A stretch of 64,000 nucleotides of DNA from a virus. Lineage: Duplodnaviria; Heunggongvirae; Uroviricota; Caudoviricetes. Shown piece after piece: positions 16,277 to 32,992 of the stretch; position 1 is the first letter of the stretch; the number at the start of each line of letters is the position of its first letter. The stretch lies in IMG/VR virus record IMGVR_UViG_3300035703_000003, one strand, 5' to 3'. The notes under the pieces were generated by a model. That model ran no database searches and was not told the DNA's origin. It was given only the letters and a program-made list of their open reading frames with translations. A program made the translations under genes and the position numbers.

Positions 16277-16543
16277 TCATTTGTCACTCGCTCCAAAGAA
16301 GAAGTTAATAATTGTTGACACTGCGGTACCTAATAAAAATCCTAAAATAATATTAGCAAAATTTACACCGTCTGGTGGTAGTGGAAAGAAAGTAACGCAA
16401 AAGAAATATATTACACTTACTATTCCCCAAAACCAAGCGAACCAATATGTAAAATGTGATGCTAATTTATCACCACGTCTTACTAGTTCTTCGTGTGCAT
16501 CTCGCAAACTGTTGTCTGTTGTGTCCATATTATCGTCTGACAT
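16277..16543 (-). CDS. Putative holin (2 TM)
   Basis: TAATG overlap with the endolysin stop; two TM helices; FFFGAS end. Confidence 0.65.
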   Translation of the reverse strand: MSDDNMDTTDNSLRDAHEELVRRGDKLASHFTYWFAWFWGIVSVIYFFCVTFFPLPPDGVNFANIILGFLLGTAVSTIINFFFGASDK

Positions 16544-17415
16544 TATTTGATACCCATTGCTGCTAGTGTTTTTGGTCCTGCTACGCCGTCTGCTGTAAGA
16601 CCTTTGCTTGCTTGCCATTTTTTAAGTGCTGCTTCTGTGCCTGGACCAAAGTCACCATCGGCACCTACACCTAATACTGCCTGCATTTTCTTAACTAAGT
16701 CGCCTTTGCTGCCTTTCTTAAGTGTTGCTGTTGCTGCACTTTCACTTGCAGATTCTGCTACTGGCTTAAGTGTTACTTTACCACCGAACACTTCCATTGC
16801 TTTTTTATAACGTGATTGACGATCTGCTAACCCGATGTCACCGCCGTTGATGATTTTAGTCATCTTAACAACATCGCCTGTATCAGCAACATCATTCAGT
16901 TTCTTTGCGTTCCAGAACCAGCAAGCTGATTCAATTGCGCCTTTTTCTGTTGCAACATATTCTGCAGCTTGTTCTGCGGTCATATTAACACTCTTACCAA
17001 AGTTAGTGTAGTTCTCACGACCAGTAAGTTGTTTTAGACCACGACCACGGAATCTCCATCCGTCACCCTCTTTTACGTTACCCATCTTTGATGTGCGGAA
17101 TTCGTCCATGTAAACATAGTTTGCAATCTTTTCTGGATTCTTTGCATACTCGGCAGCATTACGCTTTCCTGCGCCAAAGTAACGTGGAAAAATCTTTAGT
17201 AGAGTTTCTTCTCTATAGTTCAAGTTTTCTTCTAGCGTCATAAAGTTTCCGCTTTCATGAGCGCATTGTGCGATAAAGCCAGCAACTCTTGCTTCTGTTA
17301 CGATATCATATTTCGGAAGAATGTCTGCAAGTGCATCGTACCACTCTTCGACTTTTTTATTTCCTGGTATTAATGCTGCTAAATGCTCTTTAGTAAAATT
17401 AAATTTAAATGCCAT
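16543..17415 (-). CDS. GH19 endolysin with C-terminal PG-binding domain
   Basis: AQCAHES, FRGRGLKQLTG, INGG and DGDFGPGT...DGVAGPKT motifs. Confidence 0.92.
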   Translation of the reverse strand: MAFKFNFTKEHLAALIPGNKKVEEWYDALADILPKYDIVTEARVAGFIAQCAHESGNFMTLEENLNYREETLLKIFPRYFGAGKRNAAEYAKNPEKIANYVYMDEFRTSKMGNVKEGDGWRFRGRGLKQLTGRENYTNFGKSVNMTAEQAAEYVATEKGAIESACWFWNAKKLNDVADTGDVVKMTKIINGGDIGLADRQSRYKKAMEVFGGKVTLKPVAESASESAATATLKKGSKGDLVKKMQAVLGVGADGDFGPGTEAALKKWQASKGLTADGVAGPKTLAAMGIK

Positions 17416-18044: not shown

Positions 18045-18224
18045 TTAAAATCCGAGTTCTATGCCGCTATCTTGCCAACCCCAATGTTGATCGTTGGTTT
18101 TTTTGCAATGATCGCAATCACAATTATGGCAAACATCGTTACGACAATCTTTGCATTCACCACCACAATGGTGGCTGCACCCACAATTTTTGCAGGTGCA
18201 GCTTGAATGTTCTGTTATTTTCAT
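18045..18224 (-). CDS. Cys/His-rich metallothionein-like peptide (59 aa)
   Basis: Not in the track. MKITEHSSCTCKNCGCSHHCGGECKDCRNDVCHNCDCDHCKK...; 11 Cys; GGAG RBS; fills the gap exactly. Confidence 0.75.
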   Translation of the reverse strand: MKITEHSSCTCKNCGCSHHCGGECKDCRNDVCHNCDCDHCKKTNDQHWGWQDSGIELGF

Positions 18225-18227
18225 GTA

Positions 18228-20768
18228 TCACTCCATTACATAAACACGATAAGCGTCTTGTGACTTAGCCCATTTTGCGGCAGCTTTTTTCGCATCTGCA
18301 AAGCTACCTTGGAATTTAAATATCTCATCATCATCTGGCATGCCGTATTCACGTGTTGTAAACATCCACAGTGCAGAGTATCCAGGATCACGTGGTTTAC
18401 GACCATGCGATCTCATATGACGTGAGTAGTCTAATGTAACTGCTTCTTTTACTCTATCTTTTTTATCGTCTTTTTTATCAGCATTTTTTTGACTTTGCTC
18501 AATGCTTTTACGAATAATGTCTTGCGCTCGTGCCATTGCTCTTGCGTTGTGTCCTGACTTGGCTTTTGCTTCGGTTGAATTCCATTTGAGTCCACTGCTA
18601 GTAAAGACCCCTTCGTTACCGTCTTCACCGTCAATGACTTTTAATCCAATTGGATCTACTCCGTTTTTCTTAGCCATATCGATAAACTTTTGTTGCAACG
18701 GGTTGCCTGTTACATTTGCGCCGAAGTAATCATTCCATTGGTCTACTAATTTACCATCAACATATAGTTCTAGCATTGCAAAGTCTTCGCTGTAGTCGTA
18801 CCATTGCTTCATATAGGTACCTTCTTCAGCTTCGTCAAGTTCGACTTCTTCGTTTGCAAACACATATTCTTTACTAGCAATTCTTCTTTTTATTTCTTTT
18901 TCTGCTGATCTGTCGTGCTTGGCTACCTTCATTAACTTGTTGTGCGACCAGTTTTTAGCAGTAGCCGATTTATCAGATCTCCAATCAGCTTTTGTATCTG
19001 TCAGATTCTTACCGTAATATTCATCGTCGGCTGCTTTGCGACGCTTTGCATGGTCGCTGCTTTCTGCTACACCTTGATTTGAAGTTTTGCACTTAGGGCA
19101 AAAGCCGTTGTTCTTTTCCCATGCTTTAGCAGTTGATACTTCGTCGCACTTGACACAAGCAATTTTTTCTACGGCTTCGTTAAATGTTGATTCTTCTAAT
19201 TTAGAAATGTCGCCTTTTAGTAAGTCAAACTCTCTAGCAGCATCTGCAGCACCTTTGCCTGTGCGTTTCATCCATGCTTTTGCTTTTCTAATTGCGACTT
19301 GGCGCTTTTGTTCTGCACGGTTAACGGCTGCACCTAGTGTAGCTTTGTCTTCTTTCATATCACGAGTATTCTTCATACCGCTGTAGTCATTGTCCAGCTC
19401 TTTGAATTCTTCGTATGAAAGATACATATCAGTGTCACGGTCATAATATGAGCCTTCCTTTGGATCGTAGTAAACAACTTTACCACTTAGTGTCATGAAC
19501 GGACCTTCTAGGCCAGGAATTTCGTCATAACGTTCTTTATCAATGCTCTTTATTGTTTTATAACCTTCTTTTTGGACACTTTCGAATCCACGGGTGCTGC
19601 CATCCATTACACCAGGAGTTGGTGACATTTCACGACGGCCAACATTTGACGCTGGTCGTCTTTGTGGTCTTATACTAGTTGTTGGTGCAAGGTTTGAGCC
19701 TGCAGCGGGTGTGTTTGATTTTGTAAGGTTGTCAGGTCTTGCTTTCGGACCTGGTATATCTGTCATAAACTTGGCCCCTGCGCCCGGCTCTACTGCACCG
19801 CTTGGCCATTCATAGCCGCCGCCCGGTAAACTTCTGCCAGGTCTTGCAACCGGGCGTATACTAGTTTTTGGTGCTTCTTCTGTTGCTGCCATTGGTCTAG
19901 GCATTGGTCTCGCACTTGCTGCAGGTGCATTTGATTTTCTGTTAGCCATATTAGTTCCTACTCTTGTTCCTATTTGTGATCCAATTGATCCGCCGATCAT
20001 TCCGCCTACTGGACCTGCAATTGCGCTGCCTGCCATACGTCCAATTTGACCGCCTACCATAGATCCTACCATTCCTGGTCTTTGATTAGGCATTCCAGTT
20101 GACGATGCTGCTGTGGATTTTCTGATAACTGATGGATTCATTGTAGGAGTAGGAGCTTCTGACATCACAGTAGTAATCATTTGTGTAGTGTCTAGTGTAG
20201 GACCTTCGTTTAACTGTGACCACCCTGTAACATTAAATGTATCGTTTTCAAAGATAGTTAGCATACGAAGTCTATCTTTGTCGTTTGCAGTTAGATTGGG
20301 ATATGATTCAACAACTTGCTTCCAATCAGCAATGTGTGCTATTTCTTTAACAGCACTTTCTGATAAGTTACGCTTATTGTAGTATAAATTACTTTGTTCT
20401 TTAGCAACGCTTTCGCTTATTTGATTTTTTACAACAATATTGCTTACCATTTTAGCTTCAGAAACTTTTTTGTATTCGTCGAGAGCGGGCTTGAATCTTT
20501 TTAGAGTATTTTCATACTCTGCTAGCATACGATTGCTTTCTATAACATAAAGTTTGTTATTATCTTTGTATAAGTTAAGATATTCTAAAATACTGTTGTG
20601 CCAGTATGTTCTTGCAGTGTTCCATTTAATAAGACCATGTGCATAACATTCAAAAATGCTATACATATGTGCAGCTACTTTATGATAATCTCTGCCACTT
20701 TCTAAGTATAAAGCTCTGGACTTTTTACTTTCTTTTATAATTTCGTATGCTAATTCTAACTTTTTCAT
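18228..20768 (-). CDS. Large modular protein (Gly zipper, Pro-rich segment, Zn ribbon); putative processed virion polyprotein
   Basis: 846 aa with a mosaic of compositions and many [ILV]xE junctions; upstream TAAATA. Confidence 0.8.
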   Translation of the reverse strand: MKKLELAYEIIKESKKSRALYLESGRDYHKVAAHMYSIFECYAHGLIKWNTARTYWHNSILEYLNLYKDNNKLYVIESNRMLAEYENTLKRFKPALDEYKKVSEAKMVSNIVVKNQISESVAKEQSNLYYNKRNLSESAVKEIAHIADWKQVVESYPNLTANDKDRLRMLTIFENDTFNVTGWSQLNEGPTLDTTQMITTVMSEAPTPTMNPSVIRKSTAASSTGMPNQRPGMVGSMVGGQIGRMAGSAIAGPVGGMIGGSIGSQIGTRVGTNMANRKSNAPAASARPMPRPMAATEEAPKTSIRPVARPGRSLPGGGYEWPSGAVEPGAGAKFMTDIPGPKARPDNLTKSNTPAAGSNLAPTTSIRPQRRPASNVGRREMSPTPGVMDGSTRGFESVQKEGYKTIKSIDKERYDEIPGLEGPFMTLSGKVVYYDPKEGSYYDRDTDMYLSYEEFKELDNDYSGMKNTRDMKEDKATLGAAVNRAEQKRQVAIRKAKAWMKRTGKGAADAAREFDLLKGDISKLEESTFNEAVEKIACVKCDEVSTAKAWEKNNGFCPKCKTSNQGVAESSDHAKRRKAADDEYYGKNLTDTKADWRSDKSATAKNWSHNKLMKVAKHDRSAEKEIKRRIASKEYVFANEEVELDEAEEGTYMKQWYDYSEDFAMLELYVDGKLVDQWNDYFGANVTGNPLQQKFIDMAKKNGVDPIGLKVIDGEDGNEGVFTSSGLKWNSTEAKAKSGHNARAMARAQDIIRKSIEQSQKNADKKDDKKDRVKEAVTLDYSRHMRSHGRKPRDPGYSALWMFTTREYGMPDDDEIFKFQGSFADAKKAAAKWAKSQDAYRVYVME

Positions 20769-20814
20769 TTTTGTTTCCTGTGAACTTGTTATTATTTATT
20801 AAAATAGTCGATTA

Positions 20815-21990
20815 CTATTTGCCCGAAACAGTTCTCGATAATTCTAATGGATCGGCAATCGGTAATAATGGGGATTTCAAAGTAGGTATATTCAATCCGC
20901 CGCCGCCAGCTGGTCTTTTCCTTGTATTACCTGGAGGTGTATTTTGCGTTTGTGTTCTAGGCGCAGTTTGTGTTCCGGGTGTAGTTTGTGTTCCGGGTGT
21001 AGTTTGTGTTCCGGGTGTAGTTTGCGTTCTGGGTGCAGGTACTGGTGTGATAGGTGCTGTCCCTGGCGCAGGTACTGGTGTAATAGGTGCTGGTTCTGGT
21101 GTAATAGGTTCGGGTCCTGGTGCAGGCTCAGGTTCTCTTACTGGAGGTGTCTCTATTTCTGGTTCAGGTTCTCTTACTGGAGGTGTCTCTATTTCTGGTT
21201 CAGGATCTCTTACTGGAGGTGTCTCTATTTCTGGCGCCGGTGAATCAGGAATAATTACAGGCGGCTCGTTTGTATTTGGAGATTCTGGCGGTGCTGTCTG
21301 CGGTATAATTACAGGCGGCTCATCTTCTCTGGGTAGAACCGGCGGTTCGTCTCGGGTTGGTCCTTCTGGTGCCTCAGGTTCAAATGGCATGTCTTCGGGC
21401 CACCAGTCTGGTTGAGTTACAGGAATGTCAACAGGTTCTGCGTCGGGAGCAAATGCAGTAGTATCTCTAGACAATATTCTACTAGCTTCTTCTGCTGCGT
21501 TATACTCATCGGACTGTCTAGGGTCAGGCCAATTACCGTCTTCAATTTGTTGTTTTTCTACTTCTGACATTGCAGCAACACTTGCATTAACCATATCCAC
21601 GTATGCTTGTGGATTATTTTTTAGAAGATCTCGCTGAAATTCATATGCAATTTGTGCCGATGAACCCAGATATTCACTGCCCTCACCTGCGGGATCCGGA
21701 GTAAGTATTAATCCGATTGCGCCTAATGCCCTACCCAATACACCTTTAAATAATGATCCTGAATTAACTCTTACATTGGCTCCTGGTGCTGCGTTCATAT
21801 TTGCGGCTGCTTGACGAGCTAAATCTGGATTGTTATTTAAAAATTGAGTTAATGCGTTTTGAACGGAAGGTGGCTTCAAACTAGGATTTTGAGTTCCCAA
21901 AAAGTTAACAATCTGTGCAACATTTGGTGCAGCTTGCTCTGCTAACTTTTTTTTATCTTTATTGTTTTCAAACAACTCGTTTATACGCAT
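20815..21990 (-). CDS. Pro-rich repeat protein with MRINELFE tag; putative internal head protein
   Basis: N-terminal tag, PEIETPPVR and TQTTPG repeats; paralog of the next gene. Confidence 0.8.
   Translation of the reverse strand: MRINELFENNKDKKKLAEQAAPNVAQIVNFLGTQNPSLKPPSVQNALTQFLNNNPDLARQAAANMNAAPGANVRVNSGSLFKGVLGRALGAIGLILTPDPAGEGSEYLGSSAQIAYEFQRDLLKNNPQAYVDMVNASVAAMSEVEKQQIEDGNWPDPRQSDEYNAAEEASRILSRDTTAFAPDAEPVDIPVTQPDWWPEDMPFEPEAPEGPTRDEPPVLPREDEPPVIIPQTAPPESPNTNEPPVIIPDSPAPEIETPPVRDPEPEIETPPVREPEPEIETPPVREPEPAPGPEPITPEPAPITPVPAPGTAPITPVPAPRTQTTPGTQTTPGTQTTPGTQTAPRTQTQNTPPGNTRKRPAGGGGLNIPTLKSPLLPIADPLELSRTVSGK
20960..21235. repeat. In-frame coding tandem repeats (18-bp and 36-bp units)
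   Basis: (TQTTPG)n and (PEIETPPVR[D/E]PE)x3. Confidence 0.85.
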
Positions 21991-22033
21991 TTTTAGATTT
22001 CCTCGTTCGGTATATTATTAACTATTCTTTAGA

Positions 22034-23413
22034 TTATGGTCTATTAGGAACAACTCTCGATAATTCCAATGGATCGGCGATCGGTAATAACGGAGATTTC
22101 ATATAAAGAGTCGGCATGCCAAACCCTCGAGTAGTGCGAGGTTGTGAACGAGGTCGTGTGCGTTGTGTTGTGCGATTTCTTCCGTTGGGGTTATTTTTCG
22201 GATCACTCTTCGTTCTCAGATCGGGCTGTTCTAGCGGGTCAGTCTTACGTGATGGATCATTAAATCTTACTGGGGGATTAAACTCAGTTGATGGCAGTGG
22301 CTGAGTAATAGTTCCCGGCTCTGCTGCGGGGTCCGGAGTTTTTTCGTCTGGATCGCCTTGGTCATCGTCATCAGTTTGTGGGTTAAATGGCACTGGCCTT
22401 AGCGGCAACGGAAAAGTCGGTATATTTGTATCTGGCTTTGTCTCATCTGGCTTTGGCTTTATTTCTGCCGGCTTTGGATCTGTCTCTGCCGGCTTTGTTT
22501 CGTCCGGCTTTGGATCCGTCTCATCTGGCTTTGGTTCATCTGGCTTTGGATCCGTCTCATCTGGCTTTGTCTCATCTGGCTTTGGATCTGTCTCTGCTGG
22601 CTCTTCGTCTTCTTTATCAGGTTTTCGTGGAATCCAACGCACCGGTGGCGGAATACCATCATCTGGCTTCGGTTCGATTCGGTTCGGGCCGGGGGTATTG
22701 TCTGGCTCCGGGTCTGGTTTTTGTGGCTCTGGATCTTTTCGTGTCGGACTGTCAGGTGCATCTGGATTGTAAGGTATACCTTCAGGCCACCAATCTGGTT
22801 TGACATCTGGTTTAGGAATTGTTATAGGGTCGTCTGGATAAGGTGTTGCAGGAGCATCAGGTGCATCCGGTTCTATTACTGGTGCATCGGGCTCTATTAC
22901 TGGTGCATCCGGTTCTTTTACAGGTGCTTCAAATCTTGATATTGTATTCCAGGCAGAAATAGCATTTCTCTGTGCAGGAGTTAGTTTAGTTGTCTCTGTA
23001 TTTTTTATGCTATCTAAATAGTCTTGTATGTTATCTATATCAATCTCTTTAGAATTTTGTAGTGCAGAAAATGTATTAACTGCCGTTTGAGATAACTTAT
23101 CAATAAATTCTTTATTAGCTTTTTTAGTTTCAGCATCATAATCAACATCTGGACCGGATATGTAATTATAGAGATTCACAAAGGCCTTTAATACACCGCC
23201 ATGCTTCCCTACATTACGTATTAGTGCCCGACGGCCTGCATACCCGAGTCCAAATGCTATTAATTCTAGTGTGCCTGCGATAATAGGTGGTACCGCTGCT
23301 ACCGCATACTCGTTAAGTTGACGACCTTCAGTTAATGAGGATTTTTTAGCGATCTTATTGCTCTTAATCGATTCATTTATGTTTTTTGTTTTGTTAAGAT
23401 CGCTTATACGCAT
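22034..23413 (-). CDS. Pro/Asp/Glu/Lys repeat protein with MRISDL tag; putative internal head protein
   Basis: Start reassigned to 23413 (GAGG RBS). C-terminal KSPLLPIADPLELSR is shared with the neighbour. Confidence 0.8.
   Translation of the reverse strand: MRISDLNKTKNINESIKSNKIAKKSSLTEGRQLNEYAVAAVPPIIAGTLELIAFGLGYAGRRALIRNVGKHGGVLKAFVNLYNYISGPDVDYDAETKKANKEFIDKLSQTAVNTFSALQNSKEIDIDNIQDYLDSIKNTETTKLTPAQRNAISAWNTISRFEAPVKEPDAPVIEPDAPVIEPDAPDAPATPYPDDPITIPKPDVKPDWWPEGIPYNPDAPDSPTRKDPEPQKPDPEPDNTPGPNRIEPKPDDGIPPPVRWIPRKPDKEDEEPAETDPKPDETKPDETDPKPDEPKPDETDPKPDETKPAETDPKPAEIKPKPDETKPDTNIPTFPLPLRPVPFNPQTDDDDQGDPDEKTPDPAAEPGTITQPLPSTEFNPPVRFNDPSRKTDPLEQPDLRTKSDPKNNPNGRNRTTQRTRPRSQPRTTRGFGMPTLYMKSPLLPIADPLELSRVVPNRP
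22430..22600. repeat. In-frame coding tandem repeats (ETDPKPDETKPD-like, 36-bp)
   Basis: Repeated tctggctttg/gatc units. Confidence 0.85.
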
Positions 23414-23414
23414 T

Positions 23415-23867
23415 TTAGATTTCCTCGGCTGGCAAGTCGTTAACAATTTGAGCAGGATATTCGTTCATTGCAAGATATTCCATATAATTTCTTACACTGT
23501 TGATATAATCTGATGCTTTAGTGATTTTTGATTGCACCCAAGGTTCTAAATTGTCAGTGTCTTGTATCATACCGTGTAACTGAATTGCATCTTTTGCAAG
23601 TTTGTATAACTCGCTCTTTGCCATCCAACCATCTTCGTCACCGTCATCTAATACGCCTTCCATGATTTCACTCATGTAAACTACTGGCTCACGACCTTCT
23701 TTTAGTTCTGCGCTGTGACGCTTCATCCAGGCTTTTGCAACATCGATGTCTTCGAACACTTTACGTTCGACGCCATTGATGTCTAATACTTTATATGTGT
23801 TAGCACTTTCTTTAATTAACATTGGTGTAGCAATGACTTTTGCTGTTTGAATTTTATCTAGTCTCAT
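23415..23867 (-). CDS. Putative internal head protein
   Basis: MRLDKI start; LEPWVQSKITKASDYI module; internal IKE/LKE/IME sites. Confidence 0.7.
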   Translation of the reverse strand: MRLDKIQTAKVIATPMLIKESANTYKVLDINGVERKVFEDIDVAKAWMKRHSAELKEGREPVVYMSEIMEGVLDDGDEDGWMAKSELYKLAKDAIQLHGMIQDTDNLEPWVQSKITKASDYINSVRNYMEYLAMNEYPAQIVNDLPAEEI

Positions 23868-24067
23868 GGGACTCTCCGAATCATATTTGTGTATACTGGG
23901 GATTGAACTGTAGCATCCTTGCTTTCAAGTCCGACAGCTTTGCGGGCAGCTTTGTGATGTGCTTTGCCTTTTTTACCTGTGAATAGAGGCATTGCAACGG
24001 CAGCAATACTACCTGCTCCTGTTGCACCTGCGCTTGCTTCTTCTTTTACAATTTCCCAGACTTTCAT
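23864..24067 (-). CDS. Small tagged protein (MKVWEIVKEE)
   Basis: Tag followed by ASAGATGAGSIA; upstream TAAATA. Confidence 0.7.
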   Translation of the reverse strand: MKVWEIVKEEASAGATGAGSIAAVAMPLFTGKKGKAHHKAARKAVGLESKDATVQSPVYTNMIRRVP

Positions 24068-24124
24068 ATACTTATTTATTCAGGTATAAGTATTTGATAT
24101 ATTACAAATCTTTAAGGACAACGC

Positions 24125-25201
24125 ATGAAAATAGCTATAATGTTAACCGGGCTTTTAATAGATAAGGTTGACACCCTGCCACATATTAAAAAAATGTTTG
24201 ATTACATAGCGGCAAAGAATAATTTAGCAATTGATTATTATTGCCACTTTTGGGCTCCGGAAAACATGTATCCATACCATATCGACTATCATGCAACAAA
24301 AATTGCTGTTCCGTGGGAAAATCAAGGTAGTATAAATCACGCAATAGATATTTTTAAACCAATAAGTTATAAGGTAAGCAAATATTCAGAGATATTGCCG
24401 TATTTTGAAAATTATACAATTAGCTTATCAAAACATGACAAATGGCTAAACGAGGCGTTTAGTGATGCAGAGATGTTTGTCAATCACAACATACACAAAA
24501 GATTCTTTGTAGATAATTTTGAAGACCCCATTACTATATTCAACAAATGGTGGACTTATCATATTAACTGGTGTCAGTTTATTCATTATACTGCTCAGGT
24601 ATACAGTGTAAGTGAATTGATGAAAATAGTATCATCTAGCAACACAGATTATGATGCTGTTATAAAATGGAGATTTGATGTACTGTTCGATTATAAAAGT
24701 TTCGAATCGATGATAGTTGATCTCATTCGTAATATTAAGGATGATAATGCATTATATACAGAACTCGCTTGGGAGGGAATACAATGGACAGCCGATCTGA
24801 GATCGGATATTAATAATGTCGATAATAAACTAATAAGCCTACACGATGGCTGGTGGATAACAAACAAAGAAGTTAATAAAATCATGGCTAATAATTATCT
24901 CAACTGTTATATGTCGGACATGTGTAACACAGTAGGAAAAGAAGCTGGAACACACACATGGCATTATAACGGCGTAGTTAAGTGTGGTCTATATATTAAA
25001 TTAATTGGTAGAATAAATCATACAATCATAAGATTTCCTGCTAAAATACCACACGACTGGCACGAAAATACATCTAGTTATTATCCTCACTTATGGAATT
25101 CGCAATTTATCGCCAAAAAAGATAGTGATTTTAAAATGTCTTTACAATATTGGGACAAACGATCTCAATATTATACTATAAAACATTTTGATTTTTATTA
25201 A
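24125..25201 (+). CDS. Putative glycosyltransferase-like protein
   Basis: MKIAIMLTG...YDAVIKWRFD; AGGA RBS; related to the convergent neighbour. Confidence 0.6.
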   Translation: MKIAIMLTGLLIDKVDTLPHIKKMFDYIAAKNNLAIDYYCHFWAPENMYPYHIDYHATKIAVPWENQGSINHAIDIFKPISYKVSKYSEILPYFENYTISLSKHDKWLNEAFSDAEMFVNHNIHKRFFVDNFEDPITIFNKWWTYHINWCQFIHYTAQVYSVSELMKIVSSSNTDYDAVIKWRFDVLFDYKSFESMIVDLIRNIKDDNALYTELAWEGIQWTADLRSDINNVDNKLISLHDGWWITNKEVNKIMANNYLNCYMSDMCNTVGKEAGTHTWHYNGVVKCGLYIKLIGRINHTIIRFPAKIPHDWHENTSSYYPHLWNSQFIAKKDSDFKMSLQYWDKRSQYYTIKHFDFY

Positions 25202-26054
25202 AATTTTCATAATCTTCTTTTAGTAACTTAAAAGTCATTTGACTCATATCGTGGTTATTCCTTAACACTGTTGAATCAAACGCAGTAGGCCATGTTACCG
25301 AAAAACTTAACCAGTTAGTTTTACTATACGCACTTGTTTTCATCCATACCCAGTGTTGTAATATTGATTTGTAGTCTCCGACTTTTAAATCATAAAACAA
25401 TGGTTTGTGCTCTGTTACCAACTTAAAACAATGTTCTTTAAGATTTTTGCTATAGTTATACCAAGGCGTCGGTAAAGAAATAAAGCAAAAATCTCCGATG
25501 TGTGGAGTTCCGCTTTCAATGTATAACCATGGTGCCATTACTTTATCTCTAAACACTGGATTTCTGTGCATATTACTAAATGCTGCTAGCCATTCAGATT
25601 CTGAAATGTTATTTAATATAGTATCACTCCGGGTTCGCAAGACAACATCGTACATACCTTCTAAATTACCGGTCATTGAGGTCATGCCGTTGATAGCTAA
25701 GTATTGTCCGAAAAAATTAAAGCTATAGTCTGATATATGAGCTTCGTTAGTTTCAAATAAAATACTATGCCTTACGTTGTCAGGAATAAGATCTAAGTAA
25801 CGATTATCCTTAACATTATACGCTTTTACATTTCTGATAAACTCAGTCATAACGCTTTTGTAATCAGCGACATGATAACGAACAGGAGCGTATGTGTTTT
25901 CGATACGTTGTTTTAGATTCGGAGAACCGTCGTCCCAAAAATAGCAATAATAATCAACCTTTATATTATTATTTGCAAATACTTTATTTTTATACCACCA
26001 AGAGCCTTCTTCTAAGAATCTCGGTTGACCAGTGACTAGTATTGCTACCCGCAT
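25176..26054 (-). CDS. Putative glycosyltransferase-like protein
   Basis: MRVAILVTGQPR...YDVVLRTRSD. Confidence 0.6.
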   Translation of the reverse strand: MRVAILVTGQPRFLEEGSWWYKNKVFANNNIKVDYYCYFWDDGSPNLKQRIENTYAPVRYHVADYKSVMTEFIRNVKAYNVKDNRYLDLIPDNVRHSILFETNEAHISDYSFNFFGQYLAINGMTSMTGNLEGMYDVVLRTRSDTILNNISESEWLAAFSNMHRNPVFRDKVMAPWLYIESGTPHIGDFCFISLPTPWYNYSKNLKEHCFKLVTEHKPLFYDLKVGDYKSILQHWVWMKTSAYSKTNWLSFSVTWPTAFDSTVLRNNHDMSQMTFKLLKEDYENFNKNQNVL

Positions 26055-26062
26055 ATAACCTC

Positions 26063-27253
26063 TTAATTTAACGGCAATTCGGGATTCGGTGTTGTGAAGT
26101 TCTTTTTACGCATTACTGTTTTAGCAACTAAGTCTAGCACTTGACTGTGTGAATCCCAATTTAACACAAAAGGAACGTTAATATCAGAACGCATGTCCTT
26201 GATAACAGCTTGTGCATCAGGACCCATTTGTGCAATCTTTTTACCATAATTAATATACGTGTCTTTGAATAAAATTGCAAGTTCTTTTATTGTGATTTGT
26301 TTCATGTTTCTTTCATCGTTAACACGGTCAAGGAAGTGACGTGTAAATTCTACGTCAATGCCTAACTTTCTAAACAGTTGGTCTAGATACTTTTCTAGTG
26401 TGTCTAACTGAACTTGTGTAATTTGCGGATTGTCTTCTTCATTTATGCCGTATTTGCTTACATATAGTTTTTCTAATTCACGTGGACTTAATCCAGCTGC
26501 GAAACTGTTTGCGATACGGAATGCATAATCACCTAACGAATGTCTTTCGCCCTTGCTTTTTACAAGTCTATGCATTGCTTCTAGTGCTGCATTGATTAGT
26601 TTTTCTTTTGCTTTTACGTTATATTCTTCTCTGTTCATTTCGCTTACATCTCTCACTGTTCTGATGCTACCATCATGGTTTACGAAATATGCTGAAAATT
26701 TCACATTAGGATATTCTTGTTGTAGTTTGTTAAACACTTTCAAGTTAGTCATACTATCGTCATACATTCTAACACGACCGTATTTTCCCGTATCCAAATA
26801 ACGTCTTACAAAAACAGCTTTTTTCTCTGCAGGTATTGCATTACTTCTAATATTACCCGCTCTATGCACATGTATTAAGTCTATATTAATACCATGTTGT
26901 CTAAATGTATCTAGGAAAAGATCTTTGTCATCGAAATCTTCTCTTGCAGTTAACATAATAACTTTACTATCGCCTGCGTTCTGCAATATAGCATTTAGTT
27001 TTGCTATCATTGGTTTCATAGGCTCGCTTTCTTTATTAAACTTCTCTGCATTTCTGAATTCGCCAAAGTCAAACTCTTCGCCGGGCTGCAATTCATAATT
27101 GTTGAATTGTTGATTGTCTAATGTTTTTACTACATTACCATCCTTTACTACTTTTATCTTAGCAGTAGTATGGAATAATGTATCATCAATATCAAATATG
27201 GTTAATCCTAAGTTAGAATCACCATAAGCCTCGAAAAGTTCTTTTAATCTCAT
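26063..27253 (-). CDS. Tagged (MRLKELFE) HAD phosphatase fused to further modules
   Basis: IFDIDDTLF, LTAR, K and YDD HAD motifs; C-terminal FTRHFLDRVNDERN module. Confidence 0.8.
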   Translation of the reverse strand: MRLKELFEAYGDSNLGLTIFDIDDTLFHTTAKIKVVKDGNVVKTLDNQQFNNYELQPGEEFDFGEFRNAEKFNKESEPMKPMIAKLNAILQNAGDSKVIMLTAREDFDDKDLFLDTFRQHGINIDLIHVHRAGNIRSNAIPAEKKAVFVRRYLDTGKYGRVRMYDDSMTNLKVFNKLQQEYPNVKFSAYFVNHDGSIRTVRDVSEMNREEYNVKAKEKLINAALEAMHRLVKSKGERHSLGDYAFRIANSFAAGLSPRELEKLYVSKYGINEEDNPQITQVQLDTLEKYLDQLFRKLGIDVEFTRHFLDRVNDERNMKQITIKELAILFKDTYINYGKKIAQMGPDAQAVIKDMRSDINVPFVLNWDSHSQVLDLVAKTVMRKKNFTTPNPELPLN

Positions 27254-27266
27254 TTATCTAAATCCT

Positions 27267-28166
27267 TTAACGGCGTGTTGTGTTTGATGGCGGTGTCAAC
27301 GGTCTAGATGTGCCGCCAGGTCTTGCGGCTTGACCTGGACCTGCTACTGTTCCGCTTGGATTGAATCTCGGAGTTCCGGGTAATGGATTTGGATTTATTG
27401 TTCCCCCAGGTCTTGCGGCTTGACCTGGACCTGCTACTGTTCCGCTTGGATTGAATCTCGGAGTTCCGGGTAATGGATTTGGATTTATTGTTCCCCCAGG
27501 TCTTGCGGCTTGACCTGGACCTGCTACTGTTCCGCTTGGATTGAATCGTGTAGGTGGTACATTACTGCTAGCTGGTGGTCTTGCTGCGTCTAAGCCATCT
27601 TGATAACCACGTCTACGTTGTAATTCTGTGTTGCCGTCTCCTCGCCCGCCTGTTGCTGGACTAGCTGCTGGCATACTACCCTGGGCGCCAACTGTTGGTC
27701 TTGCTCCGCCTTGCGCTCTGTTTAACGCAGACATAGTTTGATCACCGGCAATTCCGTCTACTTGTAAACCAAAATCTGTTTGAAATTGTTTAACCGCGGC
27801 GGCAGTTCTTGGACCAAATTTTCCATCTGCTCCGGTGTCTCCAAGATCATAACCTTTGTCTATCAACATTTGTTGAAGGCCGCTTACATCAGAACCAGAC
27901 GAGCCACGTCTTAGATTTGAAGTAGTTGTCCCAGGAGCTCGTACACCTGTGGGTGCTCCACTAGTCGATTGATCAGGTCTAGTTGGTTGTCCCCGAGTTA
28001 TAGGCCCGCTAACTTCTTGGCCTGGTCTAGCTGGTAATCCTCTGAATACAGGCCCGCCAGGTCTTGCACTTTGTCCTGGTCCAGCCACTGTTCCGTCGGG
28101 ATTAAAATTCGGAGTTCCCCTGCCGGCAGGTAATGCTGGTCTTTCAAATAAATCTTTCAATCTCAT
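27267..28166 (-). CDS. Tagged (MRLKDLFE) peptidoglycan-binding domain protein with 30-aa repeats
   Basis: LRRGSSG...DGKFGPRT...VDGIAG PG-binding domain. Confidence 0.85.
   Translation of the reverse strand: MRLKDLFERPALPAGRGTPNFNPDGTVAGPGQSARPGGPVFRGLPARPGQEVSGPITRGQPTRPDQSTSGAPTGVRAPGTTTSNLRRGSSGSDVSGLQQMLIDKGYDLGDTGADGKFGPRTAAAVKQFQTDFGLQVDGIAGDQTMSALNRAQGGARPTVGAQGSMPAASPATGGRGDGNTELQRRRGYQDGLDAARPPASSNVPPTRFNPSGTVAGPGQAARPGGTINPNPLPGTPRFNPSGTVAGPGQAARPGGTINPNPLPGTPRFNPSGTVAGPGQAARPGGTSRPLTPPSNTTRR
27316..27548. repeat. Near-perfect 90-bp coding tandem repeat (about 2.6 copies)
   Basis: Units start at 27316, 27406 and 27496 and encode PRFNPSGTVAGPGQAARPGGTINPNPLPGT. Confidence 0.9.
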
Positions 28167-28402
28167 TTTGTTTTTTTCTCCCGGACCAGATCGTCCTTGT
28201 ATTCTTCTATGTAGTATTCTAGTGATTTATCACCACTACATATTTCAAAGTTTTCATTATTTATTGTTTTGCCTCTTATAAGATTTTTAGTTTTTTTGTC
28301 AATACTCTTAACATGTATTACCATGTCCTTATCCTGATGCTTATAATAAATTATATGCTGCGGATTAAAGTATCTCCAAATCTTTTTAAAAAACAATTTC
28401 AT
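28163..28402 (-). CDS. Hypothetical protein
   Basis: ATGA overlaps on both sides. Confidence 0.65.
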   Translation of the reverse strand: MKLFFKKIWRYFNPQHIIYYKHQDKDMVIHVKSIDKKTKNLIRGKTINNENFEICSGDKSLEYYIEEYKDDLVREKKTK

Positions 28403-29811
28403 TTCTCACGACCTGCTTTCATATTAGCAAGCCAGTGTGCCATACGCTGCTTTTCGCCTGAACTATTTTTAGCTGTTTTTCGCAAATCACTAACACTGGC
28501 TTTGGTATTTACACCCATACGCTTTGCCAGACCTTTGCGCCCTGGATTTTTACCATCTGCAAAGTTTTCATTTGTTTTTTCTACAGGGAAATATGCTTTA
28601 ATAGTTTTACCCATACGTTGCGCTGCGGCTGCACGATGGTTGCCATCAATTACACTGTACTTACCGTCACTAAACTGTGGTCCTACAATAATTGGTGCGC
28701 TTAGGTCAACACGATGACTGTAGTCGATATCTACAATACGATCAAATGGATCATCATAGTCGAAGAATTCTTCCTCACTTGGGAACATGTCTGGGGTAAA
28801 GTTTCCAAGTTGCCAATCATGAGCTAAGATGAACCGATCCATGTCTTTGTTCATACCAGCATCGTGATGCATACCTCTGAAGATTTTCAGCATTTCTTTG
28901 CCAGATTCTTCAGCTAATCCTTCTCTAGCCGCCGCTGCTTTTTCATCACTAGTATCGCCGGTAACCTTGTATGTTTTACCGTTTACACTAAATTCTTTTT
29001 TACCTGCTTTGATAGCATTCATACGTGCATCAGTAAATGGGTTTGATTCGTTAATATTGTCTGATAATAGATTAACAATTTTAGGCAATAGAGACTGATT
29101 CCTTGTAGCTTCTGGCAAGTCGCTATCTTTCATTGGTCTAATGCCTTTTATTTTTACATGCTCATTCTTTTCAAAACGTTTAATAAACTTCTCAACGGGC
29201 AATGGGCCGTCATAGTCAATTAATGTGTTTCCAAGTTTAACTGCAGCGTGATCTGCGTTGCCACGATCATTAATAAGAACCACTATATCTCCACCGTGTA
29301 TTTTTTGTAATGCTTGTGCTACTAATACACATCCACCATCAAACGGACCACAATCTTCGGGTTCTAAAATGTCATAAATGTTTTCTTTTGCTTCATTAGT
29401 AAGATCATGTGCAACCTTAAGTGCTGCTGGACCTTGTGGATGTCTTGGATTGATACTAACAACATCGCCGTTCATAAGATCACTGACGCTGGCACTCTTG
29501 CCTATTTTGTCTAACAGTTGATGTAACTTATCCTCAGGATCATAACCGTTTGTCTCGTATCCTAGTTTACCACGCACTTCAGTTCGCTTGCCTGTTTGTT
29601 TGTTTAAAATATGTAGGACTAGCATACCTGCACGGTTGTCACGCTCCAGTTGTAACATGTAACTATTGCCACTGCTTTCTTTAAGATAAGGTAAACTGAA
29701 CCACAGCTTAAACCAATCGTCTGTTCCTGGCTTTACTTTCTTTTCACGCTCGATGTCACGCAAACGCTTGCTTGTATGACTAATATTTTCTGATATTTCG
29801 TTTATTTTCAT
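28399..29811 (-). CDS. Tagged (MKINEISE) multi-module protein including a ParB-like domain
   Basis: PIIV...VIDGNHRAAA ParB motif; GGC...HA...IDYDG possible Cys-His-Asp module. Confidence 0.8.
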   Translation of the reverse strand: MKINEISENISHTSKRLRDIEREKKVKPGTDDWFKLWFSLPYLKESSGNSYMLQLERDNRAGMLVLHILNKQTGKRTEVRGKLGYETNGYDPEDKLHQLLDKIGKSASVSDLMNGDVVSINPRHPQGPAALKVAHDLTNEAKENIYDILEPEDCGPFDGGCVLVAQALQKIHGGDIVVLINDRGNADHAAVKLGNTLIDYDGPLPVEKFIKRFEKNEHVKIKGIRPMKDSDLPEATRNQSLLPKIVNLLSDNINESNPFTDARMNAIKAGKKEFSVNGKTYKVTGDTSDEKAAAAREGLAEESGKEMLKIFRGMHHDAGMNKDMDRFILAHDWQLGNFTPDMFPSEEEFFDYDDPFDRIVDIDYSHRVDLSAPIIVGPQFSDGKYSVIDGNHRAAAAQRMGKTIKAYFPVEKTNENFADGKNPGRKGLAKRMGVNTKASVSDLRKTAKNSSGEKQRMAHWLANMKAGREK

Positions 29812-30173
29812 TTCGCCAGACCTAAGTTAAACAATGTATTTGTTGTGCTAGTATTTAACAGTTTTGGCTTGCCGTCGCCTCCGAAAAACTTTTTAGCTTG
29901 ACGCTCAGTTTCACCGGGCTTAACATCGACTGTAGTATTAACACCAGGAACAATTTTACCATCTTCATCTACACGCTTGCCACGCTTACCGTAAGCACCG
30001 CCTGCATACCACTCACACCATCCGTTTGGGTCTATGTTACCTGCAACTGCACTACATTTGTTAGGATCTCTCCACATTGTGCAGTTAATACATTTTTGTC
30101 CGTTCTTAGGATCAGGCTGATAACCTGCTTCAGCCTTAGACCCTTTCCCTTCAAATAGCTCATGTATTCTCAT
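29808..30173 (-). CDS. Tagged (MRIHELFE) high-potential iron-sulfur protein (HiPIP)-like
   Basis: AGYQ...CINC-x8-C-x10-GWCEWY, the four-Cys HiPIP pattern. Confidence 0.8.
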   Translation of the reverse strand: MRIHELFEGKGSKAEAGYQPDPKNGQKCINCTMWRDPNKCSAVAGNIDPNGWCEWYAGGAYGKRGKRVDEDGKIVPGVNTTVDVKPGETERQAKKFFGGDGKPKLLNTSTTNTLFNLGLAK

Positions 30174-31366
30174 CTTGGTCCTACTCCCATTGCCGTTGGC
30201 GGTGTTCCAGTTGATGGTTTAGGTTTAGGAGGAGTGATAGGCTTTGGTGCAGACTTGGGGGGAGTTAATCCGGTCCCTGTTCTATCTTGTGCGCCCATCG
30301 GTGTTGGACTTCCTGACCCTGTAGTTAGTTTAGGTATATTAGTCGGAGTAGTTGGGGCCACTCTCGGTGTTGGACTAACAGGTCTAGTAGGTAAACTTAC
30401 GTTGTTAAAGATTTCTCGCATAGCACTTAATGTTTGCACGCCTGCTATACCATCAACTTGTAGACCGTAATCTTGTTGAAACTTTCTTACCGCTGCAGTT
30501 GTATTCCCGCCATAACGACCGTCGACTCCCTGATCGCCTACAGTATATCCTAATGTTGTAAGACCTTTTTGTAAAGTTTTAACACTGTCTAATGGAACAC
30601 CTTCTGCTCTGTAATCTCTTTTAAGATTTATTGCTCCACTAGGACCTGGCAACTTACTAACATCAATTTTAGGGATAACTTTAGGTGGTATAACGTTTAC
30701 TCTAGCAGGAATACTTGTAAATGGATTTGGAACGGCATTCGGGGGAGTTAACTTGGGACGTTCTAAGTTCGGTGCGGACATAGTAGACACTGTTGTTCTA
30801 AACGCAGATGGTGATGTATAATTTGGCCCAGCTGTAGTTAATGCTCTATCTAATGTATTATATCCTGCTGATAAGTTTGCATATCCATCTGCACTGTAAT
30901 TAGGATCAGTGCGACGCCATCTAATATAGTTGTCTCCTAATACTTCTGCTGCAGTGTTAGGGTCAATATCAGGATTTCCTAAAAATTCGGTTGCAGTTCT
31001 ACGATATGACGGCTCGTTTTCCATTTCATATCTAACAAACTTTGCTTGTGCATCTAATGTTTCTTGTCCGGGTATAAGATTTCCGCTATTATCTATCCGG
31101 CCTTGGTCGTTCATAAATCTCATAAATGAATCATGACGTGGTCCTTGCCAGCTAATCATACCTGCATTGCTAGCACGATTGTATGGATCTGTATGCGTTC
31201 CATACAAATATCTGTCTTGAAAACTATTTTCTCTATTAACCTCTGCAGTAAGAGCTCTTGCTTGAGCATCACTAAATCCTGCATTAGTAAATGCATTATA
31301 AACGCCCAATGCGTTTGCTTCACGACTAGTTAATTCTCCTGCTTCGAACAGTTCTTTTAATCTCAT
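30170..31366 (-). CDS. Tagged (MRLKELFE) phage tail lysozyme-like domain plus PG-binding domain
   Basis: GFSDAQARALTAEVNRENSF, GMISWQGPR and LDAQAKFV; DGRYGGNT...VDGIAG. Confidence 0.8.
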   Translation of the reverse strand: MRLKELFEAGELTSREANALGVYNAFTNAGFSDAQARALTAEVNRENSFQDRYLYGTHTDPYNRASNAGMISWQGPRHDSFMRFMNDQGRIDNSGNLIPGQETLDAQAKFVRYEMENEPSYRRTATEFLGNPDIDPNTAAEVLGDNYIRWRRTDPNYSADGYANLSAGYNTLDRALTTAGPNYTSPSAFRTTVSTMSAPNLERPKLTPPNAVPNPFTSIPARVNVIPPKVIPKIDVSKLPGPSGAINLKRDYRAEGVPLDSVKTLQKGLTTLGYTVGDQGVDGRYGGNTTAAVRKFQQDYGLQVDGIAGVQTLSAMREIFNNVSLPTRPVSPTPRVAPTTPTNIPKLTTGSGSPTPMGAQDRTGTGLTPPKSAPKPITPPKPKPSTGTPPTAMGVGPR

Positions 31367-31370
31367 TTTA

Positions 31371-32006
31371 TTATCCTGCTAGTATAGTTAATAGTTGTAG
31401 TATTGCTTCTGGATGCATCGATTGTCTTGGTGTAGCTAACAGTTGAATTTCTGTTCGCATTTTGTCTGCGTCTTCTGGACTTACTCCACGGCTTTCTAGT
31501 TTGTCGATAAGATTGTTAATTTTATTTAAATCAATCGGGAGTGGTGGTTGCTCTTGTTCTCCTGCTTCTGTTGCAAAGGATCTTAATTTTCTTGCTATTT
31601 TAGGGTCTCTTAGTAATCTTAACGCTTTTACTCCTAGTTGGCCGACACGGCCATCGCTTATTCCCAATACATTTGCTATTTGTGTATTTGTCATAGGATT
31701 ATTAAATGGTTCAATTCCAAACTGTGCTTTAAGTATTAGTGCGTATCGGCGTGGTAATTGATCTATTGCTGCATGTATTTCTTTTGTTAGTTCTTCACGA
31801 TTTACTGTATCGAATTGGTCAGCATCATAGCTACCGGTGGGGAAATCAACTTGTGTGCCTTTAACAGTAATGTCTCTTTTACTAATACTTTTACTGTTAG
31901 GCACTCTGCCCCCGATAGTAGTGTTGCGGTATGTTTCGCTGTCTGGATTGTATAACGCCATTACCTGCTTATCACTAAATGTTTCTGATAAATCTCTTAG
32001 TTTCAT
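31371..32006 (-). CDS. Tagged (MKLRDLSE) sigma70 region-4-like HTH protein
   Basis: LPRRYALILKAQFGI...RVGQLGVKALRLLRDPKIARKLRSF aligns by eye to the RpoD C-terminus. Confidence 0.8.
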   Translation of the reverse strand: MKLRDLSETFSDKQVMALYNPDSETYRNTTIGGRVPNSKSISKRDITVKGTQVDFPTGSYDADQFDTVNREELTKEIHAAIDQLPRRYALILKAQFGIEPFNNPMTNTQIANVLGISDGRVGQLGVKALRLLRDPKIARKLRSFATEAGEQEQPPLPIDLNKINNLIDKLESRGVSPEDADKMRTEIQLLATPRQSMHPEAILQLLTILAG

Positions 32007-32560
32007 TTTTTATATTGTCCCAAATATTCAGCTACTAAGTCAAAGAAAGGTTTACCATCAATCATAGTATCGGCAGATACACCTGCAGCATCTGCAAATG
32101 CTTGTTTGTCTCCCATTGCAACCGCTGTTCTTAATGCAGTTGCACTACTTAATCTTGGTGTTGGCACTTGTGTTATTTTAGGGAAGTTATAACCACCATG
32201 TGCGCCCTCTTTGCCATTATATTGCTGTAATGTTTTTAAAACCCAATCTTCGTCGGTATAGATCCTCAATTCAACATCGCCGTGTTTTTGATAAATTTCG
32301 TTTGCAAGTGTAAGCCAGCTTTGACTAGGTGCAATATGCTTTGCTACTTCTGGCCAAATAGTTTCCATTGCTTTTATTTTTACATCATATGGTAACGGAT
32401 CTTTTGGACCTTGTGTAGATTTGTTTGTGCCAACATACCAAGCAGGATTTTCACTAGCCATTTGCCATGCAGCTTTATGACCTTTATGAGGAGGATTGAA
32501 TCGTCCAAATATTAATCCTACACTATTAACGTTTGCTTCAAATAATTCGAATAATCTCAT
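32003..32560 (-). CDS. Tagged (MRLFELFE) HxGH nucleotidyltransferase
   Basis: FGRFNPPHKGH, KDPL and SSATALR motifs. Confidence 0.85.
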   Translation of the reverse strand: MRLFELFEANVNSVGLIFGRFNPPHKGHKAAWQMASENPAWYVGTNKSTQGPKDPLPYDVKIKAMETIWPEVAKHIAPSQSWLTLANEIYQKHGDVELRIYTDEDWVLKTLQQYNGKEGAHGGYNFPKITQVPTPRLSSATALRTAVAMGDKQAFADAAGVSADTMIDGKPFFDLVAEYLGQYKK

Positions 32561-32587
32561 TTTACTGTTTCCTTGTCAACCTTGTCA

Positions 32588-32944
32588 TCACCAAGCCCTG
32601 CAACTCCAGTATCTTGCTTTAGTCTTAGGCCCAGGATTATCGCAATTGTGTCTTGCACGGAAACTACGGCGACGTGCTGGGTTTGATTTTTTAATACGCA
32701 TGTTTGGATCACCAAAGTTTACTTTTTTAACATTTCCTGTGCCAGGATCTTTTACATAAACTTTGAATTTTTTTACATCGCCTTGCATAGGCTTGTTGAG
32801 CTGCACATTGCGCCCTTGATATTCGGCTTCGAAGAGACCATCTTCGTCATATGCTAAGTAGCCAAATTCTTCGTGAAAATCTTGATTATCATCTAACGTG
32901 ATTTCGTTTTCACTATTCTCGGTTATAAGGTCTGAAAATTTCAT
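32588..32944 (-). CDS. Tagged (MKFSDLITE) basic protein
   Basis: Acidic leader, then LFE|AEYQG and a basic domain RRSFRARHNC...RYWSCRAW. Confidence 0.8.
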   Translation of the reverse strand: MKFSDLITENSENEITLDDNQDFHEEFGYLAYDEDGLFEAEYQGRNVQLNKPMQGDVKKFKVYVKDPGTGNVKKVNFGDPNMRIKKSNPARRRSFRARHNCDNPGPKTKARYWSCRAW

Positions 32945-32948
32945 AAGA

Positions 32949-32992
32949 ACACCCTCGGTAATACTTTAATATAGTATTTAGCCCGAGGGTGT
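32949..32992 (-). promoter_or_regulatory. Late promoter (TAAATA) within an RBS-sequestering hairpin
   Basis: 10-bp inverted repeat ACACCCTCGG/CCGAGGGTGT flanks TAAATA; the 3' arm contains the GAGG RBS. Confidence 0.7.

Follow-up and report, generated by a model that had tools for sequence, protein, structure and literature searches.

Why should proteins of quite different kinds, encoded side by side in one phage genome, begin with the same short peptide? The question is raised by a block of genes at positions 18228-32944 of a 64,000-nucleotide stretch of tailed-phage DNA (IMG/VR record IMGVR_UViG_3300035703_000003; Caudoviricetes), the whole of which is called the window below. An earlier interpretation made without database searches, referred to here as the sequence-only reading, had proposed that the peptide is a portable tag like the capsid-targeting sequence (CTS) of phage T4, which is removed by the gp21 prohead protease. 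The analysis reported here leads to the same view. By analogy with T4, the tag is likely to be a propeptide that targets about 13 varied cargo proteins to the capsid and is cut off by the prohead protease, and a kit of enzymes probably travels with the DNA of this phage.

The window derives, on the evidence of its genes, from a T4-superfamily jumbo phage that has not been cultured. Its DNA polymerase is of the T4 type, being 48% identical to that of Sinorhizobium phage Phosso and about 43% identical to those of Rak2/CBB-like jumbo phages. Comparison of the block with 50,697 phage records by megablast gave no cultured relative at the DNA level.

A shared N-terminal peptide on dissimilar proteins

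The block contains 16 open reading frames (ORFs), in a window that is almost wholly coded on the minus strand. Thirteen of the 16, all on the minus strand, carry the shared N-terminal tag, which is 8-20 residues long, and each of the 13 N-termini listed by the sequence-only reading was present at the start coordinate given for it. The core form of the tag consists of Met followed by Arg or Lys and then by two tandem [Leu/Ile]-x-[Glu/Asp] triplets. A strict pattern for this form (^M[RK][ILVF].[DE][ILMV].{1,2}E) was compared with the window ORFs of at least 45 residues. It matched 10 of the 16 ORFs inside the block and none of the 92 elsewhere (Fisher p = 2e-10), the chance expectation being about 0.02 matches in 108 ORFs, which bears out the shared tag that had been noticed. 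No match was obtained at 480 internal Met positions, used as a control. Looser and longer forms are present on three further genes, which start at 20768 (MKKLELAYEIIKE), 23413 (MRISDLNKTKNINE) and 23867 (MRLDKIQ..LIKE, MRLDKIQTAKVIATPMLIKE), and all of these end in I-x-E. For the gene starting at 23413, the ATG preceded by a GAGGAAA ribosome-binding site is a likelier start than the TTG located upstream at 23446. Every one of the 13 tags has an [LIV]-x-E end: LFE occurs six times, IKE twice, and ISE, LSE, ITE, VKE and INE once each. The tag is absent from three ORFs of the block, 24125-25201 (plus strand), 25176-26054 and 28163-28402.

The codons of the tag vary between copies, with CGT and AGA for Arg, TTA, TTG, CTT, CTA and CTG for Leu, and further variation for Glu and Phe, and the DNA located 5' of the tagged genes is unrelated from one copy to the next. 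These observations indicate that the conserved object is a peptide rather than a DNA element, and selection, as judged from the sequences, is acting on that peptide. A nucleotide-level repeat or shared 5' element was ruled out because codons and upstream DNA differ between copies.

The proteins were also said to be unrelated behind the tag, and this is mostly the case: after removal of the tags, only two similar pairs were left, namely the Pro-rich paralogs 20815-21990 and 22034-23413 and the PG_binding_1 domains of 27267-28166 and 30170-31366. A degenerate DNA pattern for M-R-L-x-E-L-F-E was found in more than 120 viral contigs, with about 80 matches located exactly at the start of an ORF and often with several tagged ORFs per locus. 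One relative, G004 (complete, 344 kb), has just one strict 8-residue tag and carries forms of the MKSTEFITE type instead, and the census pattern was widened beyond the strict 8-mer for this reason. The 151 tagged ORFs fell into at least 37 families once the tag was removed, indicating that the peptide is portable. Untagged homologues begin at the fold itself: the cytidylyltransferase of phage CBB starts with MVYGRFNP, in the Rossmann strand, and podophage lysozymes start about 10 residues further in. The tag is thus an add-on. Ten contigs found through the lysozyme domain (L002-L011) were rejected as relatives, being unrelated, podophage-like and untagged, and served as untagged controls.

In the IMG/VR contig L001, whose proteins are 73% identical to those of the window, the block is syntenic and the orthologs are tagged. 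Over nine ortholog pairs, identity was 90% in the first 8 residues, 79% in the next 20 and 67% in the rest of the proteins. The locus is otherwise plastic, since the comparison revealed one inserted gene, one replacement behind the tag, permuted modules and a swapped sigma domain. In the ortholog of 27267-28166, the tag is kept (7/8 residues) and the following 20 residues are replaced (2/20). The 470-residue product of 28399-29811 and its 1148-residue counterpart (L001 11552-14998) contain the same modules in another order, and the module breakpoints lie directly after [LIV]-x-E (PYLKE/, LTNE/, NINE/ or IHAE/, a slash marking the predicted cut here and below). The pair fits a polyprotein that would be cut by the head protease, with shuffling of modules at the cut sites. 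The sigma region-4 protein (31371-32006) has only its C-terminal 60 residues or so in common with the L001 counterpart (around 9650-10000), which starts with MKINEF and lacks the sigma domain, as in a domain swap behind a tag-like start.

T4 propeptides, the head protease and cyanophage virions

The CTS that T4 internal proteins (IPs) carry, MKTYQEFIAE, depends on residues 4 and 7 for targeting and on residues 8 and 10 for processing by gp21, and foreign proteins fused to it are packaged. At least ten IPs have been recognized in T-even phages by their signal sequence, and the CTS-bearing proteins of T4, the IPs and Alt, are injected. The window resembles the T-even IPs (Ip1-3 and the polymorphic ip loci) and Alt in several respects: a short N-terminal peptide with a hydrophobic-x-Glu end is shared by unrelated proteins, the genes lie together in a plastic locus, in a phage of the T4 superfamily, one member is small and very basic, and a gp21-type protease is encoded by relatives. 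It differs from T4 in its core tag, which has 8 residues forming two [LI]-x-[ED] triplets instead of the 10 of MKTYQEFIAE, in the number of tagged genes (13, versus three IPs and Alt), and in its cargo, which includes sizeable enzymes as well as multi-module proteins reaching 846 residues, whereas the T4 IPs are small restriction inhibitors.

The closest match to the window tags is the propeptide of T4 gp24, a protein annotated as cleaved by gp21, with a propeptide cited as 10-20 residues long. Its N-terminus, MAKINELLRE, is near MRINELFE (K-I-N-E-L-L-R-E compared with R-I-N-E-L-F-E) and MKINEISE of the window, although these peptides are too short for a statistical test of homology. Propeptides of the gp24 type are borne in T4 by shell proteins, whereas the window peptide is borne by non-shell proteins of many folds. 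Forms intermediate between the 8-mer and the IP-type CTS are found in the window (MKFSDLITE), in G004 (MKSTEFITE and MRATEFITE) and in phages Melnitz (MKKFSEIIEA and MKKFSELTSE) and S-SM2 (MKSFFQFLSE). The phiKZ-like giants (phiKZ, 201phi2-1 and SPN3US) also have many head-internal proteins with N-terminal propeptides that are cut after Glu by a diverged gp21 homologue, and some of the substrates are multi-site or polyprotein-like. The propeptides of their ejection proteins are, however, mostly longer than 100 residues, with Ser, Ala or Gly at P3 of the Glu cut, whereas the window tags, 8-20 residues long, have Leu, Ile or Val in the P3 position, in the T4 manner.

No head gene was found among the window ORFs screened. 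In relatives, the T4 gp21 family (Peptidase_S77) scored above the cut-off in six of nine large tag-bearing IMG/VR contigs. Among these six are all four contigs with a completeness of 82% or more; the remaining three contigs are fragments with 29-35% completeness. In two of the relatives, G002 (231 kb, DNA polymerase 62% identical to that of the window; gp21 homologue at 46571-47212) and G004 (56%), the portal gene is followed by those for a small protein, another protein, the protease, a scaffold-like protein and the major capsid protein, and the portal, head maturation protease and major head protein of G002 were matched in PHROG searches. The small proteins encoded between portal and protease start with MKFLELRE (G002, 48201-48428) and MKINDLTILNE (G004, 268205-268444). 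They occupy the position of T4 gp67/gp68 and are presumed by analogy to be prohead-core proteins with tag-like N-termini.

The presumed maturation junction of the major capsid protein in these relatives, placed by homology to T4 gp23, would be YLSE/SVSAGATSSGNVAV and HLAE/SASSGATAAGNVATL. In more than 20 small, basic (Lys/Pro-rich) tagged IMG/VR proteins, the tag is followed by the same words as those of the mature capsid N-arm (ELFE/TASAGATSAGNIA). The same applies to the 67-residue protein of the window (23864-24067; VKE/EASAGATGAGSIAAV), whose mature start, SAGATGAGSIAAV, copies the N-arm of a T4-type capsid protein. The N-arm words SAGAT.AG.IA.V ... IRRV.P are found in this protein and in the capsid genes of G002 (44271-45440; L164 4271-5440) and G004 (264347-265537). 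The 67-residue protein could be a mimic of the capsid arm or could stem from duplication of a 5' part of the capsid gene, and a single protease cutting both the tagged proteins and the capsid protein would be the simplest account of these junctions. Two cyanophage look-alikes of this protein, S-SCSM1_97 and S-CREM2 gp160, are virion proteins detected by mass spectrometry.

Cultured cyanophages offer virion data on homologues of a tagged protein. A cytidylyltransferase (T4-GC190) was among the proteins identified in the purified S-SM1 virion. A cytidylyltransferase was also found in the S-CREM2 virion, together with a SAM hydrolase, a kinase and other proteins, and NMNAT-like proteins were found in virions of S-SCSM1, S-CBWM1 and another estuarine cyanophage. 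The cytidylyltransferase/NMNAT homologues start with MKSFFQFLSE in S-SM2, MKNFSSFLTE in S-CREM2 and MKSFLQFLKE in S-SCSM1. The tag of the Kyanoviridae virion cytidylyltransferases is a 10-residue M-K-x-F-x-x-F-L-x-E, often followed by a long linker, in contrast to the 8-residue core tag of the window. All ORFs of S-CREM2 (OR473000) were scanned with the pattern ^M[KRQN].[FLYIW]..[FLIM][LIFMVT].E, and five matches were obtained: gp6 (SAM hydrolase), gp13, gp14 (kinase), gp136 and gp154 (cytidylyltransferase). All five belong to the list of 52 virion proteins and none of the 178 others matches the pattern (p = 4e-4, for a pattern that was partly post hoc, having been written after some matches had been seen). 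Applied unchanged to 17 annotated ORFs around the virion NMNAT gene of S-SCSM1 (MK867354), the pattern matched only that NMNAT. The neighbours of the latter gene are annotated as virion proteins, and the locus is bordered by genes for primase and RNR, like that of Melnitz. Phage Melnitz (Methylophilales phage EXVC044M) is in culture and has the homologous cluster as gp15-gp18 and gp27. The accessible parts of the S-CREM2 and S-SCSM1 accounts draw no link between presence in the virion and a targeting sequence, and a full-text literature search for 'capsid targeting' and 'cyanophage' retrieved only a T4 review.

Contents and surroundings of the block

The ORFs of the block are listed in Table 1. 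The domain calls of the sequence-only reading were confirmed for the lysozyme, peptidoglycan-binding, HiPIP and sigma region-4 proteins. The nucleotidyltransferase call is supported for 32003-32560 as a cytidylyltransferase/NMNAT-like enzyme by matches to PHROG family phrog_3041 (1e-13) and in tblastn (7e-12), with a Pfam score under the cut-off of the family. The HAD call is a lead only: 26063-27253 has a DxDxT motif and matches phrog_415 (2e-7) and phrog_23027 (2e-26), with no Pfam match, and might encode a HAD/polynucleotide-kinase (PNK)-like enzyme. The ParB call was left unconfirmed, as 28399-29811 had no Pfam or PHROG match and its matches in the structure atlas all had TM scores below 0.3. 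Four tagged proteins received no family assignment in the Pfam and PHROGs searches. The Gly-zipper segment of 18228-20768 matches phrog_6922, as does the lysozyme domain of 30170-31366, and the same lysozyme is present on a 5-kb Logan contig. By analogy, the 67-residue basic protein may be a counterpart of the T4 internal proteins. The ORF on the opposite strand (24125-25201) is probably an insertion.

Table 1. ORFs of the block at positions 18228-32944, with a slash at the predicted cut.
Coordinates	Strand	Length (aa)	N-terminus	Features
32588..32944	-	118	MKFSDLITE/N	conserved phage protein phrog_7595; most T4-IP-like tag form in the window
32003..32560	-	185	MRLFELFE/A	cytidylyltransferase/NMNAT-like (supported); GRFNPPHKGH motif
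31371..32006	-	211	MKLRDLSE/T	Sigma-70 region 4, PF04545, 30.7 bits (cut-off 24.1)
30170..31366	-	398	MRLKELFE/A	Phage_lysozyme2 (phage tail lysozyme) and PG_binding_1; Pro-rich tail
29808..30173	-	121	MRIHELFE/G	HiPIP-like Cys-rich domain, PF01355, 24.5 bits (cut-off 22)
28399..29811	-	470	MKINEISE/N	multi-module; ParB/Srx-like motif IDGNHR, ParB identity unconfirmed
28163..28402	-	79	MKLFFKK	untagged
27267..28166	-	299	MRLKDLFE/R	PG_binding_1 between Pro/Gly-rich repeats; mature isoelectric point (pI) 11.7
26063..27253	-	396	MRLKELFE/A	HAD/polynucleotide-kinase-phosphatase-like N-terminal part (DIDDTL; lead only); phrog_23027 C-terminal domain
25176..26054	-	292	MRVAILVTG	untagged
24125..25201	+	358		untagged; opposite strand; absent from relative L001
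23864..24067	-	67	MKVWEIVKE/E	small basic protein; mature pI 10.4
23415..23867	-	150	MRLDKIQTAKVIATPMLIKE/S	loose tag; acidic
22034..23413	-	459	MRISDLNKTKNINE/S	loose tag; Pro-rich repeats; paralog of 20815-21990
20815..21990	-	391	MRINELFE/N	Pro-rich repeat protein
18228..20768	-	846	MKKLELAYEIIKE/S	loose tag; multi-module with Gly-zipper segment

The two Pro-rich paralogs differ in their internal tandem repeats and have the C-terminal motif KSPLLPIADPLELSR in common. This motif departs from the [LIV]-x-E rule; C-terminal processing also occurs in T4 Alt. Just outside the block, 16543-17415 encodes an untagged GH19-like hydrolase with PG_binding_1, probably the lysis endolysin, in contrast to the tagged Phage_lysozyme2 protein inside. 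Directly downstream of the 846-residue tagged gene, 18045-18224 encodes 59 residues starting with MKITEH and including 13 Cys and several His (CxCxxCxC-type runs), with a metallothionein- or zinc-ribbon-like look.

The tagged genes had been said to follow TAAATA late-type promoters, which holds in part. The motif ATAAATA occurs 13 times in the window, each time on the coding strand and mostly just 5' of gene starts, a distribution as would be expected of a T4-like late promoter. Only two or three candidate sites precede tagged genes: ATAAATA is located upstream of tagged genes at 20793-20799 (gene 18228-20768) and 24073-24079 (gene 23864-24067) only, and TATAAATA is absent from the block. A late promoter before each tagged gene was rejected on these grounds, and the tightly packed tagged genes more likely form a few operons. 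The 59-nucleotide gap upstream of the first tagged gene contains a perfect 9-bp inverted repeat (about 32950-32991, minus strand; CACCCTCGG ... CCGAGGGTG) with TAAATA in the loop, which might serve as terminator, promoter-stem-loop element or recombination site. Genes for a ClpA-like ATPase (43573-45810; phrog_4871, 1e-249) and a DnaJ-like protein (45870-46700) are present near the tagged genes in the window, and such genes are also near tagged genes in the contig L017 (759-4363) and in G004 (119523-123037).

The propeptide reading, its alternatives and its meaning

The proposed sequence of events follows T4 by analogy and probable homology. The propeptide would dock a newly made protein onto the scaffolding core during prohead assembly, and a gp21-type protease would cut after the last Glu of the tag (P3 = L/I/V, P1 = E). 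The peptide of 8-20 residues would leave, and the mature protein would stay in the head with the DNA, most likely exiting with it at infection. Among the cargo would be a lysozyme and one enzyme each of the cytidylyltransferase/NMNAT-like and HAD/PNK-like kinds, along with peptidoglycan-binding, sigma region-4 and HiPIP-like proteins, a small basic analogue of the internal proteins, and Pro-rich and several multi-module proteins. The T4-like, portable capsid-targeting tag with removal by a gp21-type protease, as originally proposed, is supported by the [LIV]-x-E end of all 13 tags, the likeness to gp24, the presence of Peptidase_S77 in relatives and the cyanophage virion homologues.

Several points weigh against this interpretation. 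Docking, cleavage, packaging and injection are steps that we infer for this phage from T4, and the protease is taken from relatives whose DNA polymerases are 56-62% identical to that of the window. The tag, at 8 residues, does not reach the length of the T4 CTS, and very few residues carry the similarity to T4. Three of the 13 tags have a loose form, and chance often places an [LIV]-x-E within 20 residues. A lysozyme or HiPIP packaged in the capsid would need to act in the periplasm, for which T4 provides no precedent. With the S-CREM2 pattern partly post hoc, S-SCSM1 is the sole blind check, on one protein. Finally, the authors of the S-CREM2 and S-SCSM1 accounts themselves warn that detection in CsCl-purified virions could reflect carry-over of abundant proteins.

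The tag might dock and be clipped as proposed, with most of the tagged proteins being assembly or head-internal parts (core, scaffold, DNA-condensing or capsid-lining proteins) that are degraded or retained rather than delivered as effectors. T4 offers a model in gp67, gp68 and gp22, core proteins that are cut by gp21 and not injected; the small proteins encoded next to gp21 in G002 and G004 have tag-like starts, and a structural look is shared by the capsid-arm mimic and by the Pro-rich, low-complexity and multi-module members. We nevertheless regard this account as unlikely, since the cytidylyltransferase, the HAD/PNK-like protein, sigma region 4 and the lysozyme have no obvious role inside a capsid and the CTS carriers of T4 are injected.

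It is distinctly improbable, in our estimate, that the tag is recognized by another machine, either as a degron or chaperone handle for the phage ClpA/ClpP and DnaJ or as a leader for a radical-SAM maturase. The ClpA and DnaJ genes are 10-14 kb distant from the block; in L017 and G004 they directly adjoin tagged genes. G002 has four CxxxCxxC ORFs at 3-9 kb from its tagged cluster, but none was found in the 64-kb window and those of G004 are more than 55 kb away. Neither a ClpA nor a radical-SAM gene was found in the annotation tables and CxxxCxxC scan of S-CREM2, yet its proteins with related tags are in virions. In addition, the tag conforms to the gp21 rule and is similar to the gp24 propeptide, and Met-Arg does not supply the free Leu, Phe, Tyr or Trp that known ClpA/ClpS N-degrons require at the N-terminus. 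The radical-SAM leader was rejected in view of the lack of a CxxxCxxC ORF in the window and in S-CREM2 and the inconsistent distances in G002 and G004.

That the motif is a by-product devoid of any targeting role, such as the relic of a duplicated 5' gene end or a translation-initiation feature of A/T-rich early codons, is scarcely credible: the tag codons are A/T-rich and the Pro-rich paralogs have a near-identical ribosome-binding string and first codons, but the copies differ by synonymous changes and in their upstream DNA, the peptide has been retained by at least 37 unrelated families across many contigs and is better conserved between orthologs than the rest of the proteins, and it is absent from 92 other ORFs of the same codon bias.

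The capsid-targeting propeptide is the favoured explanation. The principle of loading by CTS has reportedly been known since Mullaney and Black in 1996, and reviews already propose that the CTS allows T4-like phages to load varied proteins. New here are the 8-residue variant near the gp24 propeptide, present on about 13 genes in one block, some of them coding for enzymes and multi-module chains; the broad distribution of this variant among uncultured aquatic jumbo phages related to T4; and the link to unexplained 'non-structural' virion proteins of cyanophages. A broader proposal, which we advance tentatively and would not call probable, is that the 8-residue peptide is a minimal and freely portable signal for head loading and cleavage in a large clade of these uncultured phages, delivering at DNA entry a ready-made enzyme kit that is active before any phage gene is expressed. 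The kit would include a nucleotidyl/NAD-type transferase, a HAD/kinase-like end-repair enzyme, sigma region-4, wall-degrading and redox proteins, and polyprotein-like multi-module chains, and might pre-empt NAD-depleting or RNA-cutting host defences.

If the propeptide reading is correct, the internal-protein mechanism of T4 would not be a curiosity of T-even phages but a general cargo system of aquatic T4-related phages, by which a dozen or more enzymes and regulators could be loaded per virion. This would explain the recurrence of NMNAT/cytidylyltransferases, kinases and SAM hydrolase in purified cyanophage virions. The 8-residue tag would offer a small handle by which foreign proteins could be packaged into phage heads, and a simple sequence rule would predict injected proteins in the genomes of uncultured phages.

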